Both the position numbers and the translations under genes were made by a program. Below are positions 4,964 through 31,362 of a DNA stretch of 33,703 nucleotides, piece by piece. The stretch is from contig JANWJI010000043.1 of assembly GCA_025449515.1 (NCBI GenBank), positions 1 to 33,703 on the forward strand. The letters are read 5' to 3'. Under the pieces are notes generated by a model. The model did no database searches. It was not told the origin of the DNA and was given only the letters and a program-made list of their open reading frames with translations. The stretch is from Nitrososphaeraceae archaeon (GTDB taxonomy: Archaea > Thermoproteota > Nitrososphaeria > Nitrososphaerales > Nitrososphaeraceae). Position 1 is the first letter of the stretch. The number at the start of each line of letters is the position of its first letter.

Positions 4964-5303
4964 ACCTCCTAAGTAGATCATTCCTATCTCTTTCCATCAT
5001 TATTTCTATCACAACACAAGAACACAAGCAGATAGGAAGGTGGATTCACAAATTCGAATTTAGCTACTGGTCTCTCCAGGCAAAATTTCAACAATACACC
5101 AGATCTTTCAACTGTTCAAACCCTATCGATATACCGATCATATCATAAATTCCAAGCCCGAACTAGCCTAATTCATTACCTAATAGATCCAGGAATTAGT
5201 CGTATAGAGCGAATCAACGCATTTTATTTGAATTAAGGCAAGAGTAGATCACTCCTCCATATTATTCTGAACATTTGACTTTACCGATACCTATAGTTAA
5301 TTT

Positions 5304-5311
5304 TTTATATA
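5304..5311 (+). promoter_or_regulatory. Putative archaeal TATA box for the NHL-repeat gene (leaderless-type spacing)
   Basis: TTTATATA is centred about 26 nt upstream of the ATG at 5334, the spacing expected if transcription starts at or near the start codon. Confidence 0.4.
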
Positions 5312-5333
5312 CGGAAGAGTCCAATCCTAATTC

Positions 5334-6332
5334 ATGCTAGAGCAAGAGAAAAACCCTCGCATTAGCGGTTTTTGCATCTATTTTTGCGGTTCAATTCTAA
5401 TTAGCTTGTTTGCAATGAGCACTATCACTACTCACCAGGCATATTCAGTTGGATCAGAACAGTACTCCTTCGTTGGAAAATGGGGATCAAAAGGTGTAGG
5501 TCACGGCATGTTTTCGCAAGCGTCTGGCATAACTACGGATTCTAATGGAAATGTGTATGTAGGAGATCTCACAGGAGTCAGCGGCAAGATACAAAAATTC
5601 ACTAGCAACGGCACATTCATTACTTCTTGGGGAAATCTAGGGTTTGGTCCCGGAGCATTTACGAATCCGACCCAGCTTTCTGCAGATTCTAATGACAACA
5701 TATACGTCGCTGATTTAGGGAACGCCGAGACAGCTGTTCAGAAATTCACTAGCAACGGCACATTCATCACTTCTTGGGGTTCAACAGGATTATCTGATGG
5801 ACAGTTTATAAATCCGAGTGGAATTGGCGTTGATTCCAAAGGCTATGTCTATGTAGCTGATTATGGAGAGAATAATCGTATTCAAAAGTTTGATAGTAAT
5901 GGAAACTTCATAACAAAATGGGGATCTACTGGTACTGGTGACGGACAGTTTATAAATCCTGCAGATGTTGCCATAGATAAAGTAAACAATGTATACGTAG
6001 TAGATAGAGGCAATGATCGTGTCCAAAAGTTTGATAGCAATGGAAACTTCATAACAAAATGGGGATCTACTGGTACTGGTGACGGACAATTCCAAAGTCC
6101 CATAGGAATTAGTGCAGATCAGTCTGGGAATATTTATGTGGTTGATTTTGGTAATGATCGTGTCCAAAAGTTTGATAGCAATGGAAACTTCATAACAAAA
6201 TGGGGATCTACTGGTACTGGTGACGGACAATTCCAAAGTCCCATAGGAATCACAGTCAATTCCAAGGGGATTGTATATGTTGTCGACGGAGGAAACGGCA
6301 GAGTCCAATTTTTCTCTCTCGCCCCTAAATAG
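5334..6332 (+). CDS. Secreted or anchored six-bladed NHL-repeat beta-propeller protein
   Basis: An N-terminal hydrophobic segment is followed by six roughly 47-aa repeats of the NHL type (F-I-T-x-W-G-S-x-G-x-G-D-G-Q-F-x-x-P-x-G-I-x-V-D-x-x-G-N-I-Y-V-x-D-x-G-N-x-R-V-Q-K-F). Confidence 0.85.
   Translation: MLEQEKNPRISGFCIYFCGSILISLFAMSTITTHQAYSVGSEQYSFVGKWGSKGVGHGMFSQASGITTDSNGNVYVGDLTGVSGKIQKFTSNGTFITSWGNLGFGPGAFTNPTQLSADSNDNIYVADLGNAETAVQKFTSNGTFITSWGSTGLSDGQFINPSGIGVDSKGYVYVADYGENNRIQKFDSNGNFITKWGSTGTGDGQFINPADVAIDKVNNVYVVDRGNDRVQKFDSNGNFITKWGSTGTGDGQFQSPIGISADQSGNIYVVDFGNDRVQKFDSNGNFITKWGSTGTGDGQFQSPIGITVNSKGIVYVVDGGNGRVQFFSLAPK
5871..6293. repeat. Intragenic tandem repeat, 3 x 141 nt (NHL blades 4-6)
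   Basis: Units start at 5871, 6012 and 6153. Segments 6012..6109 and 6153..6250 appear identical over about 98 nt, and the first unit is slightly diverged. An older 147-nt duplication is visible at about 5593 and 5740. Confidence 0.85.
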
Positions 6333-6583
6333 GTTCAACAGAATTAATGACAGGATTTCATTTTACTCAGTCTAATGGTCTGTGAAATTTTATACTTAAC
6401 ATACCGTCACAAGAAATGTGCTTTCTAGTCGTATATTTTTTTGTCACGCCCTACTGACTGACTAATACTGGAATATGAAATGATTACATAGTTAAACGCA
6501 GTCACATGAACGTCTCACGAAATAAAAAACAGATTTTGAGATGCATTTAATAATAAAGGTCTGAATTAAATAATGAGCAAGAT

Positions 6584-7918
6584 ATGCTGAGAAGACTATC
6601 ATTTTCATTCCTGTTAATTAGTGTTATCCTTTTGTGGTGTATAGGTTCAAACTTCACCCTTCGCATGAACTATCAATCGATACATGCCCAGGGGAATATT
6701 TTGAATACTACTAGCGATGTGCCCTCAAGAGTAATGGAAATACCAGGTTCTTTGTTTGCGCACAATCCGGGAACACCTATCCTAAAGGACTTGCACTTGA
6801 AAGCAGATATGGTCGTTAGCGGATTGAGCCTTCCTACTACGATGGCCTTCGTAGGAAATAATGACATCTTGGTATTAGAAAAGGCCAAAGGTACTGTGGA
6901 GAGGATCCTAAACGGCAAGGTATTGAGTAAACCTCTTCTAAATGTAAATGTGGAATCGCAGGTAGAAAGAGGGATGCTTGGAATTGCCGTTGCAAATAAT
7001 AGGAACGGTCCTATGTATGTTTTCTTGTACTTTACTGAAAAGACAAATCCATCAATTAGTCATACTGATGGTAGTACATCTGTTGCTAATCGTGTATACA
7101 GATACGAGTATGTTGATGGGAGACTTATTAATCCGAAGATTATTTTGGATCTACCCGCCACTCCAGGACCAAGACACAATGCGGGCTCTATAGTAATTGG
7201 TCCAGATAATAATTTGTACGTCCCGATCGGAGATGTAGATGGTCATAGTAGTCAAGCACAGAACGTAGCTGATGGAGGACCAGCTGATGGCACAGGTGGA
7301 ATACTTAGAATCACTCAAGATGGCAAGCCTGTAGGTAACGGCATACTTGGAACAACTAGTCCTGTAAACAAGTATTATGCCTATGGGATACGAAATACCT
7401 TTGGTTTAGGTTTTGACCCTTTGACTAAAAATTTGTGGGACACAGAAAATGGCGCAGGATCAAACGATGAAATTAATATAGTGCAACCAGGATTTAATAG
7501 TGGTTGGGTGCAAGTCCAGGGAAAGGCGCCTCCGGATTTCGATTACTCTCAGTTATTTACCTTTGATGGTAAGGGCATATATCATGATCCTGAATTTTCT
7601 TGGCATGATACAACTGGTCCTACCAAGATACTTTTCCTTAACTCTTCAAAACTAGGGAAAAATTACGAGAATGATGTTTTCGTGTCGGATATTCACCATG
7701 GAAGAATATTTCATTTTAAGATGAACGCAAATAGAACAAGTCTAGCATTACAAGGCCCGCTCGTTGATCGAGTAGCTGACACAGGTAACGAAACAAACGG
7801 ATTGATATTTGGATCTAATTTTGGTGGCATATCAGATATGGAAGTTGGTCCGGATGGTTACCTGTACGTAGTTTCACTTGGCCGAGGGACAATATATAAA
7901 ATAATTCCTACCCTGTAG
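6584..7918 (+). CDS. PQQ-dependent sugar (glucose/sorbosone) dehydrogenase-family beta-propeller, secreted
   Basis: The 444-aa product has an N-terminal signal/TM segment. GSDH-family motifs are present: GLSLPTTMAFVGNNDILVLEKAKGTV, ERGMLGIAV, GPRHNAGSIVIGPDNNLYVPIGD, YAYGIRNTFGLGFDPLTKNLWDTENGAGSNDEINIVQPGFNSGW. Confidence 0.8.
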   Translation: MLRRLSFSFLLISVILLWCIGSNFTLRMNYQSIHAQGNILNTTSDVPSRVMEIPGSLFAHNPGTPILKDLHLKADMVVSGLSLPTTMAFVGNNDILVLEKAKGTVERILNGKVLSKPLLNVNVESQVERGMLGIAVANNRNGPMYVFLYFTEKTNPSISHTDGSTSVANRVYRYEYVDGRLINPKIILDLPATPGPRHNAGSIVIGPDNNLYVPIGDVDGHSSQAQNVADGGPADGTGGILRITQDGKPVGNGILGTTSPVNKYYAYGIRNTFGLGFDPLTKNLWDTENGAGSNDEINIVQPGFNSGWVQVQGKAPPDFDYSQLFTFDGKGIYHDPEFSWHDTTGPTKILFLNSSKLGKNYENDVFVSDIHHGRIFHFKMNANRTSLALQGPLVDRVADTGNETNGLIFGSNFGGISDMEVGPDGYLYVVSLGRGTIYKIIPTL

Positions 7919-27346: not shown

Positions 27347-28783
27347 CTAGAAATCCTTTCTAATTGGCAATTCAGAATTTCCGAATTCGTTTGAATACAG
27401 TGAATAAAGTCTTATCTCTTGACCATGTTTTATCCGATAATTTCCAATCAGTTTTATAGTTTTTTTATATTCTTCCTTTAAGGCGATTAGTGTTTCCGCT
27501 AGATTATCAGCGATTAAGATATGCCACTCGTTACCTATATCCATAACTCTACGCGCTAGTATGATGCCAGGCCCCCAATAATTCTGATTACTTTTTATAT
27601 CATTCACTGTAAATACTGGTCCCGTACTGAGACCAATACGTACAATGATAGAATCATCACTATTTTTCTCATAATTATACTTACGCAGCTCACGGTGAAG
27701 CTGCATGCCTAGTTGTAAAGGCAATTCTGGATTCAATGGAAATCCTATTACCATTCCGTCACCAGTGGGTAGAATTATTTTCTTATCATCTGCCTTAAAA
27801 GCCTCACATGTAAGTATAAGGCTATTTAGAGTCTCTATTTTTTCTCTTTGTTTATTGACTGATAATAATGGGTCAGAAAGGCCAACTATATCTATAAAGA
27901 AAAAGTTTGCATTTATTGGCTCAGTCGGAATACCTATTCCTGACAGACTAAAGTCATACACCTTTACTAATTTCTTATAAATTCCTAAATGGTGACCGTG
28001 AAAAGGCAATTCAGTATAAATAACTGGCGTATCAAATATAGGATCCTTACAAAGGAAACAAATAGCGTAATTCGATCGTTTGCTAAACGAAATGTTCCCT
28101 TCGTTAGATATATTAAACTGGATCCACAGAGGATCATGGTGTATACCCTTTATAGAGAGCATTCTAATTCTTCTGACCAGAGCATCTCCGTTATCCTCTA
28201 ACTTCATCTCTAATATTCCATCAAAAATAGAGCTTATGCGATTAGTTTCATATTCATTCGATGATGGAGTACTTAGAGTGAAAATGGCCGCTGCATTATA
28301 TGATTTCAAAATGAAGTATAGCTTCGTAATAAATTTCTCTACAGCTTTCTCTCCAAATAATGCCAGCAGATGTGTCAACGAATCACAGACGAATCGAACA
28401 TTTTTAGCAGATTTAGTATCCGCCAAAGAAGGTGAATTTACCATCTGTTGTTTCTTACCAATCCCAGCCTGGTCAAGCGCATTAGCCACTTCGCTCAGTG
28501 TAAATGATAATTTCATATTCTCTTCTATATCATTAATATATGGATTGATAAAGATGGAATATTGGGAGATAACCGACTTCTCGATATTGGAGAAGAGGTC
28601 ATTATATTGATCTATAGTCAAATTAGAACTCAGGTATATACAATATTCATTTTGTGATATACCATCAAGCAAAAATTGTCTACAGTAAATGCTCTTTCCT
28701 GCTCCGGATGACCCAGTCAACAATAGAATGCTATTGGAGATATTATCTTTGCCTACTAAGTGACTTATCCCCGGAATTTGCAT
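27347..28783 (-). CDS. Fusion protein: KaiC/RecA-superfamily P-loop ATPase domain + Cys/His cluster + divergent class III nucleotidyl cyclase domain
   Basis: The product is 478 aa. The N-terminal domain has Walker A GSSGAGKS (aa 24-31), a Walker B-like VRFVCDS and a KaiC-like LVRRIRMLSIKGIHHD. The middle region has CFLC...FHGHH. The C-terminal domain has FFFIDIVGLS, PTGDGMVIGF, VRIGLSTGPV and GPGIILARRV, which are class III cyclase landmarks. Confidence 0.7.
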   Translation of the reverse strand: MQIPGISHLVGKDNISNSILLLTGSSGAGKSIYCRQFLLDGISQNEYCIYLSSNLTIDQYNDLFSNIEKSVISQYSIFINPYINDIEENMKLSFTLSEVANALDQAGIGKKQQMVNSPSLADTKSAKNVRFVCDSLTHLLALFGEKAVEKFITKLYFILKSYNAAAIFTLSTPSSNEYETNRISSIFDGILEMKLEDNGDALVRRIRMLSIKGIHHDPLWIQFNISNEGNISFSKRSNYAICFLCKDPIFDTPVIYTELPFHGHHLGIYKKLVKVYDFSLSGIGIPTEPINANFFFIDIVGLSDPLLSVNKQREKIETLNSLILTCEAFKADDKKIILPTGDGMVIGFPLNPELPLQLGMQLHRELRKYNYEKNSDDSIIVRIGLSTGPVFTVNDIKSNQNYWGPGIILARRVMDIGNEWHILIADNLAETLIALKEEYKKTIKLIGNYRIKHGQEIRLYSLYSNEFGNSELPIRKDF

Positions 28784-28948: not shown

Positions 28949-29116
28949 TTAGAATCCCGGTAGAGAGTCGCCTAGTCCAGGTTTTTCCTTTTCCAATTTC
29001 GCGATATTTCTTGACATATATTCCATGGTTCCGGGTATATGACACTTGCAAAGGCAATCACTACAATCTATATGGCTACCTTTTTTACAATAGTCAGATA
29101 GTCCATTACTCACCAT
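28949..29116 (-). CDS. Small Cys-rich (putative metal-binding) protein, 55 aa, below the ORF-track cutoff
   Basis: Manual translation gives MVSNGLSDYCKKGSHIDCSDCLCKCHIPGTMEYMSRNIAKLEKEKPGLGDSLPGF, running from ATG at 29116 to TAA at 28949..28951. It has 5 Cys and 2 His within 17 residues. It lies 165 nt upstream of the KaiC-cyclase gene on the same strand. Confidence 0.35.
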   Translation of the reverse strand: MVSNGLSDYCKKGSHIDCSDCLCKCHIPGTMEYMSRNIAKLEKEKPGLGDSLPGF

Positions 29117-29740: not shown

Positions 29741-30155
29741 CCCAAACACAGGCGCTTCGAAATATCCACACAATGATTGAGCTATGAATTAATACGACAA
29801 TAGTCGAAATATGGTACTCAATGATTGAATGTCGATGTAGACCTGATGCGTGCTATCCGGGATTTGTGACTCTAGCCGTATTTAGGCTTGAATCTTTATA
29901 CTACAACAACTAGGCTGTATTTGATAGTGCAGAAATTTTCGAATTATTAACCACGTAAAAATGTAGACAAATCCCCAGGTTTTGTTACAGACATCGGTAA
30001 AAATAATGGATTTCATATGAGTCTATCGAATTTCTAATCCGTTTATCAAAAATTTATAATTCATCTATTTAAGACATTATAGTATTTCGGAAGAGTGTAC
30101 GTATGAACTAAAAATAGAACTGAGTACGACGAATATTACCATAAATAAATCAAAC

Positions 30156-30329
30156 TCATAGATCATCAATAGGATATTTAGATAAACATGCGGAACATTC
30201 GTAGATCTCTTTCCCAACAGGTCCAGATACGTTGAACTTTACAACTGTAGTACATTTAGGACATCTGCCTTGTACACTACGACTCTTTGTCTGCGGCCTA
30301 ATAAGTTTCCGTCTTCTTCTTCCTCCCAT
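30156..30329 (-). CDS. elf1: Elf1-like zinc-ribbon protein (transcription elongation factor Elf1 homolog), 57 aa, below the ORF-track cutoff
   Basis: Manual translation gives MGGRRRRKLIRPQTKSRSVQGRCPKCTTVVKFNVSGPVGKEIYECSACLSKYPIDDL. It has a basic N-terminus plus C-x2-C...C-x2-C, the layout of Elf1 found in eukaryotes and TACK archaea. An A/T-rich TATA-like element sits about 30 nt upstream. Confidence 0.6.
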   Translation of the reverse strand: MGGRRRRKLIRPQTKSRSVQGRCPKCTTVVKFNVSGPVGKEIYECSACLSKYPIDDL

Positions 30330-30720
30330 TGTTTCTATCGTAAGTGTTGATACACATTCGACATTTTTACCTATCTAAGTACGGCTAAGCTCCTACAATG
30401 ATTTTATAGATTGGCACGTATGCGACAGTTTTTTTCAGCCAGGTGACCCCAAATTGATTTTGAGGGATTAAATGGAAATCTAATACTGATTACATTTAAC
30501 ATATCTATGGTTATCGTTAGATCCTGTAAAACTAACGGTATTAACATCTATTCAATATAGCCAATCTGAGATGCTCCCGTCTATCTCTATGTTTAGGCAT
30601 CAAGAGCTGTAAACCAAGTAGAAATTTGCGTGACTTTCACTGAAAATCCGCACCCGCGCAATGTCCATATCAGTTCAAGTTGGAATTAACTATTTTCTAA
30701 GTTTTATATGTGCGGCAAAT

Positions 30721-31362
30721 CTACCTAGACACAAATTTAATCTTGTCGAGGTACGTAGGAAGGTCACTAATAAAAGACATGAAATTACGGATAGGTACGA
30801 CTGGGATTTCTTCAACCAGTTTTATAGCCATTGGATAAAGAGTAAGTATTACTGGAATCGATGAAGATACAGTTTTTCTATTTGACATGAATACGTATGC
30901 CCTGTGAATTTGCTTTATCGCGTAAAATGTTATTGATTTTAAATCATTTCGCCGCCAATGCTTACAATCAATCAATATGGCTAGTTTGGAGGAATTGTTG
31001 GTTCCAACAACATCAATTTCCATTCTACGAGGTTTATTAAACCGTACATTGCACTCAGTTTCATATCCAGACAAGTTAAGAATTTCCGAAGCGAACATCT
31101 CAAAATCTCTCCAGGTTAGAATTTTCGATATAGATTCAACATCATTCCCACTTTTTAATGCAAAAATTGCAAGTTTGATTCGATCTGAATCAGAGAACAC
31201 ATAGCTATTTTGGGATGTACGACCGATTCCGTTATCCAATAAATATTGTATAACTTGTTTAGAGACTGACCGACTGTTAACAGCCAGTCTGCTTTGAAAA
31301 TCATTTGGAGTTAATTCTGGCATTATTGCATGCATAGCTTTCACTAAAAGTAAAGGATCCAC
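30721..31362 (-). CDS. wHTH + PD-(D/E)xK (Mrr/HJR-like) endonuclease-fold protein
   Basis: The product is 213 aa. The N-terminal roughly 80 aa are wHTH-like. The nuclease core follows: WRDFEMFASEILNLSGYE ... MEIDVVG ... LAILIDCKHWRR (E88, D117, D132-x-K134). Confidence 0.65.
   Translation of the reverse strand: MDPLLLVKAMHAIMPELTPNDFQSRLAVNSRSVSKQVIQYLLDNGIGRTSQNSYVFSDSDRIKLAIFALKSGNDVESISKILTWRDFEMFASEILNLSGYETECNVRFNKPRRMEIDVVGTNNSSKLAILIDCKHWRRNDLKSITFYAIKQIHRAYVFMSNRKTVSSSIPVILTLYPMAIKLVEEIPVVPIRNFMSFISDLPTYLDKIKFVSR

Follow-up and report, generated by a model that had tools for sequence, protein, structure and literature searches.

KaiC-like proteins are proposed to be the main signaling hubs of archaea, and few of them have a defined output. 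ArlH, a single-domain KaiC-like protein, binds ATP without hydrolyzing it, autophosphorylates, and changes its oligomeric state (PMC8978795). As for cyclic nucleotides, cAMP and other cyclic nucleoside monophosphates (cNMPs) have been detected in archaea, and, according to a 2023 review, none of the archaeal proteins for making, degrading, or binding cAMP has been characterized (PMC10249747). Here we analyze a 33,703-nucleotide stretch of DNA (the window) from Nitrososphaeraceae archaeon (contig JANWJI010000043.1 of assembly GCA_025449515.1), in which one gene fuses a KaiC-like P-loop domain, through a putative zinc knuckle, to a class III cyclase homology domain (CHD).

The fusion gene is a complete open reading frame (ORF) of 478 amino acids (aa) plus stop codon at 27347..28783 (-), with a G+C content of 35% against 37% for the window, and has full-length homologues with E values down to 0. 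An earlier note on this DNA, made by a model from the letters alone, had described a three-part ORF, which exists as described; all of the motifs quoted there were located in the sequence (GSSGAGKS, VRFVCDS, CFLC...FHGHH, FFFIDIVGLS, LPTGDGM, VRIGLSTGPV, and GPGIILARR at aa 404-412). We lean toward the view that the product is a cytoplasmic, Nitrososphaerales-specific signaling enzyme in which nucleotide binding would gate cyclic-nucleotide synthesis. This reading draws on domain identities, residue conservation, taxonomic spread, and gene context, from which we infer ATP-gated oligomerization, cyclase activity, and the product.

The CHD spans aa 290-462 (27398..27916 (-)), and the class III fold that had been proposed for aa 290-460 is supported by Pfam, by profile comparison, and by structure. 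Guanylate_cyc (PF00211) matches aa 357-462 with an E value of 1.4e-5 (25.2 bits against a gathering score of 21.9), while the C-terminal sequence profile finds Ma1120 in the PDB at an E value of 4e-5, together with other nucleotide cyclases. As Foldseek with the full-length AlphaFold2 model returned matches to KaiC proteins only and none to cyclases, the C-terminal part was modeled and searched separately. The model of aa 236-478 alone has a predicted local distance difference test score (pLDDT) of 83.6, with the CHD itself at about 90, and the top 50 PDB neighbors of the CHD model are all class III adenylyl or guanylyl cyclases, with template modeling (TM) scores for the target of up to 0.81. 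The best match is Rv1900c (1ybt; E value of 2.3e-10, TM score of 0.80), and others are the Chlamydomonas guanylyl cyclase 3et6, Ma1120, and CyaC. Sequence identity to the best Foldseek and profile neighbors is only 15-20%. GGDEF, Cas10-palm, and CD-NTase domains gave no Pfam match down to an E value of 10 and do not occur among the top 50 structural neighbors.

Residue conservation was counted in 79 sequences with 41-100% identity to the window protein. Both metal-binding Asp positions named in the earlier note are present in every one of them: Asp298 (27890..27892 (-)) is the first, within FFFIDIVGLS, and Asp342 the second, within LPTGDGM (aa 338-344; 27752..27772 (-)). Also invariant are Arg382 (27638..27640 (-)) in VRIGLSTG, Arg412, Lys452, His453, and the WGPGI turn. 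In the alignment with Ma1120, Arg382 pairs with 'vRiGihmG' and LPTGDGM with 'vvKsqGDGfmvaF'. On the strength of this motif alignment, we take Arg382 to be the phosphate-binding Arg of the beta4 motif; Lys452, within Lys452-His453-Gly454 (27422..27430 (-)), is by the canonical class III motif presumably the triphosphate-binding Lys of the last beta-hairpin.

The residues that read the base and orient the ribose are different. Instead of the base-specifying pair Lys/Asp-Thr for ATP or Glu/Cys for GTP, the window protein has Leu338 (Leu in 76/79) and Asn401 (79/79). The segment NYWGPGIILARR (aa 401-412; 27548..27583 (-)) holds Asn401 together with the transition-state region V-N-x-A-x-R, assigned from family counts and subfamily comparison: Arg412 is kept, Ile408 stands at the catalytic Asn position (75/79, with Val in the remainder), and an extra basic residue, Arg411, is found in all 79 sequences. 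The replacements of the Lys by Leu and of the Asn by Ile had already been read from the sequence, and both are borne out by the Ma1120 profile alignment and by alignment to subfamily relatives with the canonical G-x-G-I-N-x-A-Q-R; to these we add that the second base-specifying residue is altered as well, from Asp to Asn401. As Leu/Asn replaces Lys/Asp and Ile replaces the ribose-orienting Asn, the product is not predictable, and the caution that it could not be assumed to be cAMP or cGMP was well placed.

The CHD is the best-conserved region of the protein, with a mean identity of 68% (minimum 58%) compared to 45-49% for the KaiC-like domain, a pattern expected for a selected active site rather than for a decaying pseudo-enzyme. 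The odd residues of the CHD are thus not decayed; they make up a fixed, selected active-site variant, which favors a working enzyme.

The variant extends well beyond the fusion. An exhaustive CHD profile search of 1.84 billion proteins, with one representative per 50%-identity cluster, returned 3786 representatives, of which 303 lie at E<1e-30. KaiC-fused clusters, about two dozen of them, rank first, followed by other architectures (among P0145-P0269), including proteins of ~380-400 aa whose CHD is N-terminal and whose C-terminal half is unassigned ('archaeon MnTg01' GBF24497.1 falls in one such cluster) and CHD fused to Methyltransf_33, to FHA and a protein kinase, or to CHAT and NB-ARC/TPR. 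Throughout this subfamily the Lys position is normally Leu and the Asp position normally Asn. Whereas distant multidomain members retain the canonical catalytic Asn (GxGINxAQRVMD), closer relatives, including the KaiC-fused ones, have Ile or Val. Positions 408 and 411 (27551..27562 (-)) show correlated substitution in the subfamily alignment, Ile/Val at 408 being paired with Arg/Lys at 411 in 86/100 representatives and Asn with Gln in 40/46. This correlation may reflect compensation, or merely shared ancestry, as the mark of a clade. The claim that class III cyclases are sparse in archaea does not hold for this order, Nitrososphaerales, as judged from the CHD profile search and from comparative genomics that finds these enzymes conserved in Nitrososphaeraceae (PMC13577086).

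A different archaeal CHD was also encountered, in a CHD-receiver protein of 389 aa (L081, 1813-2982 (-)) that keeps the canonical Lys, Asp, and Asn, while its transition-state Arg is replaced by Lys. Were such a protein to coexist with the fusion protein, the two CHD types might complement one another in heterodimers.

At the N terminus, Pfam KaiC (PF06745) covers aa 3-229 (28097..28777 (-)) with an E value of 8.3e-19 (68.3 bits against a cut-off of 26.6), and the PDB sequence matches of this domain are best to the CII half of KaiC. Foldseek with the whole model retrieves KaiC, PH0186 (target TM score of 0.78), and FlaH at E values of about 1e-12, as well as PH0284 and Sso2452, so that the KaiC/RecA fold, proposed earlier for aa 1-235, is placed by both the Pfam profile and structure. 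The Walker motifs are intact. Lys30 of Walker A (GSSGAGKS, aa 24-31; 28691..28714 (-)) occurs in 77/77 sequences with a residue at that column, and in the Walker B strand VRFVCDS (aa 129-135; 28379..28399 (-)) Asp134 is found in 78/79 family members and Ser135 in 79/79. With its Walker motifs retained, the domain is in that sense not an 'inactivated KaiC'.

The catalytic Glu that follows strand beta2 in KaiC is, however, missing from the window protein. A HMMER alignment sets 'gifvtfEEsp' of Thermosynechococcus elongatus KaiC CI against 'ciylssNLti', with the Glu-Glu pair opposite Asn54-Leu55 (28619..28624 (-)), and few family members are acidic there: position 54 is Ser, Thr, or Asn in 70/79, while position 55 is Leu or Met in 63/79 and Glu in 5/79. 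As this Glu is missing, weak or nil ATP hydrolysis is predicted, and by analogy with ArlH the domain probably binds ATP but is a poor hydrolase. Of the label 'KaiC-type ATPase' given in the earlier note, the KaiC/RecA P-loop identity stands, whereas 'ATPase' is probably too strong. Other KaiC features can be traced. The Lys/Arg finger positions are still basic (R204, K/R207, and K/R212), and Ser184-Ser185 (28229..28234 (-)) align with the KaiC CII autophosphorylation sites S431/T432 ('nrISSifd' versus 'shISTitd'). Family-level models place the protein outside both described groups, as it scores 58 bits against a cut-off of 408 for circadian KaiC (NF006799), 29 against 546 for TIGR02655, and 47 against 215 for ArlH (NF052589) in NCBIfam.

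Within the KaiC-like domain lies a variable insert (aa 101-127; 28403..28483 (-)) that is gap-rich in the alignment, has a mean identity of 13%, and is modeled with pLDDT below 50 at aa 109-125. This hypervariable, low-complexity segment separates the helix at aa 88-105 from the Walker B strand. In other clades it reaches a length of over 60 residues rich in Ser, Asn, and Asp, and in some a further insert, made of Thr/Ser runs, occurs near aa 172.

The linker between the two domains holds the Cys/His cluster (CFLC...FHGHH, aa 242-265) that had been pointed out previously, and it is present and conserved as a putative zinc knuckle at aa 242-266 (27986..28060 (-)). C242 and C245 are invariant in the family alignment, position 262 is His in 53 sequences and Asp in 26, and in other clades the His at 265 gives way to a Cys placed one column further on (FHGHH versus FDSQSC). 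AlphaFold2 predicts two short beta-hairpins followed by a helix. The pattern CxxC...(H/D)..(H/C) fits a small structural zinc site, which remains a putative assignment from sequence and model.

The ORF cannot be put down to chance, as 1568 database proteins match at E<=1e-3, the top 120 being full length (~470-560 aa) at E<=1e-148; many matches carry both Pfam domains, and several JGI entries are named 'KaiC/GvpD/RAD55 family RecA-like ATPase/class 3 adenylate cyclase'. Among protein clusters from NCBI, JGI, ENA, and Logan, more than 100 (41-99% identity) show the same full-length architecture. When one genome per prokaryotic species was scanned, a relative proved to be encoded in 290 stretches, and each of the 80 loci fetched from these encodes the full-length fusion. 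These 80 carry the labels Nitrososphaerales, Nitrososphaeraceae (Nitrososphaera, Nitrosocosmicus, Nitrosopolaris), Nitrososphaeria, Thaumarchaeota, or Thermoproteota, with one Nitrosopumilales. The closest of them, from an uncultured Nitrososphaeraceae metagenome-assembled genome, is 91% identical. Relatives form several paralogous clades, and at least one genome has two paralogues (L019, L027).

A MinD/ParA-like ATPase gene adjoins the fusion gene in 57 of the 73 informative loci (in L060, for example, at 5062-5964, followed by the fusion gene at 5965-7425). In 51 of these it directly precedes the fusion gene on the same strand (median gap 55 bp), in 3 it lies downstream, and in 3 it is divergent; its product has a deviant Walker A motif (KGGTGKT) and matches Pfam AAA_31/CbiA/ParA. 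Often near the fusion gene in relatives are also DUF6659, CheY-like receivers (REC), and a ~397-aa protein that matches no Pfam family and, from its hydrophobic sequence, looks membrane-spanning. This MinD/REC neighborhood looks like a conserved signaling operon lost from the clade of the window. Of the 16 informative loci that lack the MinD-like gene, 12 belong to the window's two clades and four do not, and a search of the window for the MinD, DUF6659, REC, and ~397-aa protein families found none.

In the window itself the fusion gene is flanked by genes for valine-tRNA ligase (868 bits against a cut-off of 738), aIF-1A (on the opposite strand), HemD, a glycosyltransferase, and small zinc proteins. 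The window and the six closest loci (L001-L006; at least 84% identity) share the order valine-tRNA ligase, fusion gene, 55-aa ORF, divergent aIF-1A, and Mrr-like gene, and a second clade (L007-L010, L027, L032; 57-58% identity) has aIF-1A and the 55-aa ORF in common with them. The description of the flanks as housekeeping is thus right for the window's clade, with its valine-tRNA ligase and aIF-1A, and fails elsewhere, where the MinD/ParA-like neighbor prevails. A TTTTATATT element 55-63 nucleotides upstream of the ATG and T-runs beyond the stop codon suggest, from reading the DNA, that the fusion gene has its own promoter and terminator.

The mechanism that we favor for such an enzyme would run as follows. 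The single KaiC/RecA-like domain would bind ATP, hydrolyze it poorly or not at all, and act as a nucleotide-dependent oligomerization switch like ArlH, coupled to the CHD by the linker of zinc knuckle and helix. On ATP binding, the KaiC-like domains would assemble, presumably forming a ring like those of PH0186 and ArlH. Since class III cyclases must dimerize head to tail to be active, this assembly would switch the CHDs on by joining them into such dimers, which would convert an NTP to a 3',5'-cyclic nucleotide and pyrophosphate, and disassembly would separate them. Ile408, in place of the ribose-orienting Asn, is perhaps compensated by Arg411, and our default guess for the product is a purine cNMP made with relaxed specificity. 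The enzyme might be switched off by disassembly, by phosphorylation, or by partner proteins, which in most paralogues would be the MinD-like ATPase and REC.

Several observations weigh against this nucleotide-gated cyclase. The domain arrangement in the full-length AlphaFold2 model (mean pLDDT of 79.8) is not resolved, because the predicted TM score is 0.48. The Pfam match to the CHD is weak and partial (25 bits, over aa 357-462 only), and Ser at the two phospho-site positions is found in 55/79 and 57/79 sequences (~70%), short of invariance. The canonical catalytic and specificity residues, Lys, Asp, and Asn, are all three replaced, and in mammalian cyclases loss of the Asn or the Lys is strongly deleterious. 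Finally, neither the window nor the recurrent neighbors of related loci contain a cNMP-binding receptor, a phosphodiesterase, or an effector.

The same replacements, and the lack of a receptor or phosphodiesterase gene nearby, lend some weight to the alternative that survives best, namely that the CHD is a pseudo-enzyme that binds Mg-NTP or another ligand and dimerizes. It would then be a sensor or dimerization module controlling the KaiC-like domain as output, along with partners such as the MinD-like ATPase, in keeping with the proposal that KaiC-like proteins are hubs acting through protein-protein contacts (Makarova 2017, as cited in PMC5847659). Set against this are the invariance, in 79 sequences, of both metal-binding Asp residues, the phosphate-binding Arg and Lys, and the transition-state Arg, as well as the conservation of the CHD above that of the KaiC-like domain. 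In addition, Rv1900c of Mycobacterium tuberculosis, the top structural neighbor, lacks the canonical Lys and Asn and is reportedly still an active adenylyl cyclase (Sinha et al., EMBO J 2005). The earlier suggestion that the domain could even be non-catalytic is likewise countered by the conserved Leu338, Asn401, and Ile408, the first two of which are common to a large subfamily. We keep it as an option, though an unlikely one.

About as unlikely, and marginally the weaker of the two, is an active CHD whose product is something other than cAMP or cGMP, such as a pyrimidine cNMP like that of Pycsar PycC, a 2',3'- or otherwise linked nucleotide, or the result of nucleotidyl transfer, serving conflict and defense or lineage-specific signaling. 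It overlaps the preferred reading on catalysis. Neither adenine nor guanine finds a charge complement in the Leu/Asn pair, and Ile408/Arg411 would remodel the ribose side of the pocket, yet the top structural neighbors are all purine cyclases. For a role in conflict, subfamily CHDs are fused to CHAT and NB-ARC/TPR or to FHA and a protein kinase, architectures typical of conflict or stress systems, and one such member has a weak match to the PycC hidden Markov model (HMM; E value of 3.7e-5). The window protein, however, gives no PycC match in PADLOC, nor is there any other defense match; no cNMP-binding, TIR, or transmembrane effector is found adjacent to the gene in the annotated flanks; and the neighbors are housekeeping genes or MinD/REC signaling genes around a gene that is stably syntenic and not in a variable island. 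The judgment that context does not back a Pycsar/CBASS-like defense role is therefore upheld.

A bolder version of the nucleotide-gated cyclase, which we think improbable as a whole, would make the KaiC-like domain a sensor of ATP or phosphorylation state whose ring assembly triggers synthesis of a non-canonical cNMP (neither cAMP nor cGMP), an order-specific second messenger of soil ammonia oxidizers, wired in most paralogues to a positioning ATPase of the MinD/ParA type. The chance that the ORF is an artifact, a mis-assembled join or frameshift fusion of two genes, is negligible, with nothing found in its favor, as the fusion is conserved across Nitrososphaerales, where it is widespread, and the same architecture in 80 independently assembled loci and more than 100 protein clusters effectively refutes it.

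Several further features of the surroundings were recorded. Upstream of the fusion gene, on the same strand and 165 bp away, lies a 55-aa Cys/His-rich ORF (28949..29116 (-)). Its residues C10, H15, C18, C21, C23, C25, and H26 are invariant, and its C-terminal PGTMEYMxRNIAxLEKExPGxGDSLPGF is highly conserved. It recurs at this position in 12 related loci, with 74-96% aa identity, belongs to no Pfam family, and falls in only 33 database clusters, all hypothetical. We considered it as a functional partner of the fusion and rejected this, as its homologues elsewhere lie in unrelated neighborhoods; it is probably not a dedicated partner, and the adjacency is treated as local synteny.

Farther along, an unannotated 57-aa basic zinc-ribbon ORF (CPKC...CSAC; 30156..30329 (-)) has weak zinc-ribbon Pfam matches only and is extremely conserved, with 100% identity across five related loci against 85-91% for the fusion proteins of these loci. 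The ~800 bp around it (29741..30155 and 30330..30720) contain no ORF of at least 60 aa, no tRNA, and no Rfam match. More generally, no tRNA or Rfam family was found in the window, including its long flanking intergenic regions, in a search for riboswitches and noncoding RNA. Next to this region, a 213-aa protein (30721..31362 (-)) with a weak Mrr_cat restriction-endonuclease-like domain (E value of 2e-5) keeps its syntenic place in each of the six closest loci. Just past aIF-1A, the sister clade (L007-L010, L027, L032) has a DUF6659 gene that is absent from the window.

In literature searches the KaiC-cyclase fusion was found neither described nor characterized, the latter in agreement with the earlier note, and the fusion may have been listed before in the KaiC-hub survey of Makarova et al. 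2017. What is new is therefore a KaiC-CHD fusion for which no published description was found, and what was already known is that public annotation labels both domains. The family joins a KaiC-like input to a directly assayable enzymatic output in one polypeptide, and it is a testable candidate for archaeal enzymes that make cyclic nucleotides. The hypothesis can be put to the test because the family is abundant in Nitrososphaerales, globally important ammonia-oxidizing soil nitrifiers with some cultivable strains. The fixed Leu/Asn/Ile(+Arg) variant also defines a large and unstudied branch of class III cyclases, with 303 representatives at E<1e-30 in the profile search. If ring-gated synthesis of a non-canonical cNMP proved true, the fusion would be the first archaeal cNMP synthase to be assigned and would give the proposed KaiC hub its first enzymatic output.

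Compared with known systems, the window protein is a class III CHD protein and a member of the KaiC/RecA superfamily, and is neither circadian KaiC, ArlH, nor Pycsar. With circadian KaiC it shares a homologous P-loop, best matched by the CII half, and Ser184-Ser185 at the positions of S431/T432. Whereas KaiC is a CI plus CII tandem, the window protein has a single domain and lacks the catalytic Glu pair, and neither KaiA nor KaiB is present in the window. It resembles ArlH/FlaH (4yds), PH0186 (2zts), and Sso2452 (2w0m) in having one RecA-like domain with Walker A and Walker B. Unlike ArlH, it adds a C-terminal enzymatic output domain and falls far below the ArlH cut-off, and it stands outside an archaellum context, as no archaellum genes occur among the annotated window ORFs or the recurrent neighbors of related loci. 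Pycsar PycC is likewise a class III-derived cyclase with an altered base pocket, whereas the window protein has no PycC HMM match or adjacent effector and sits in stable core-genome synteny.

On the cyclase side, Rv1900c (1ybt/1ybu) and Ma1120 of Mycobacterium avium (4wp8) share with the window CHD the palm-type fold, the pair of metal-binding Asp residues, and the phosphate-binding and transition-state Arg residues. They differ in that the window CHD has the Leu/Asn pair, Ile at the Asn position, and the extra Arg411, in an archaeal host, and in that its partner is a KaiC-like P-loop domain, while theirs is an alpha/beta-hydrolase or the CHD stands alone. The CHD-STAND proteins, with the CHD N-terminal to NB-ARC/AAA_16 and TPR (for example, the mycobacterial Rv0386 type), have the reverse domain order of the window fusion, in which the P-loop comes first and is of the RecA/KaiC rather than the STAND class, and bacterial-type members keep the canonical Asn. 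Like the window protein, they couple a CHD to an oligomerizing P-loop NTPase, and they and the other Leu/Asn architectures belong to the same CHD subfamily, with the motifs LPTGDGM and GxGI(N/I)xA(Q/R)RVMD.

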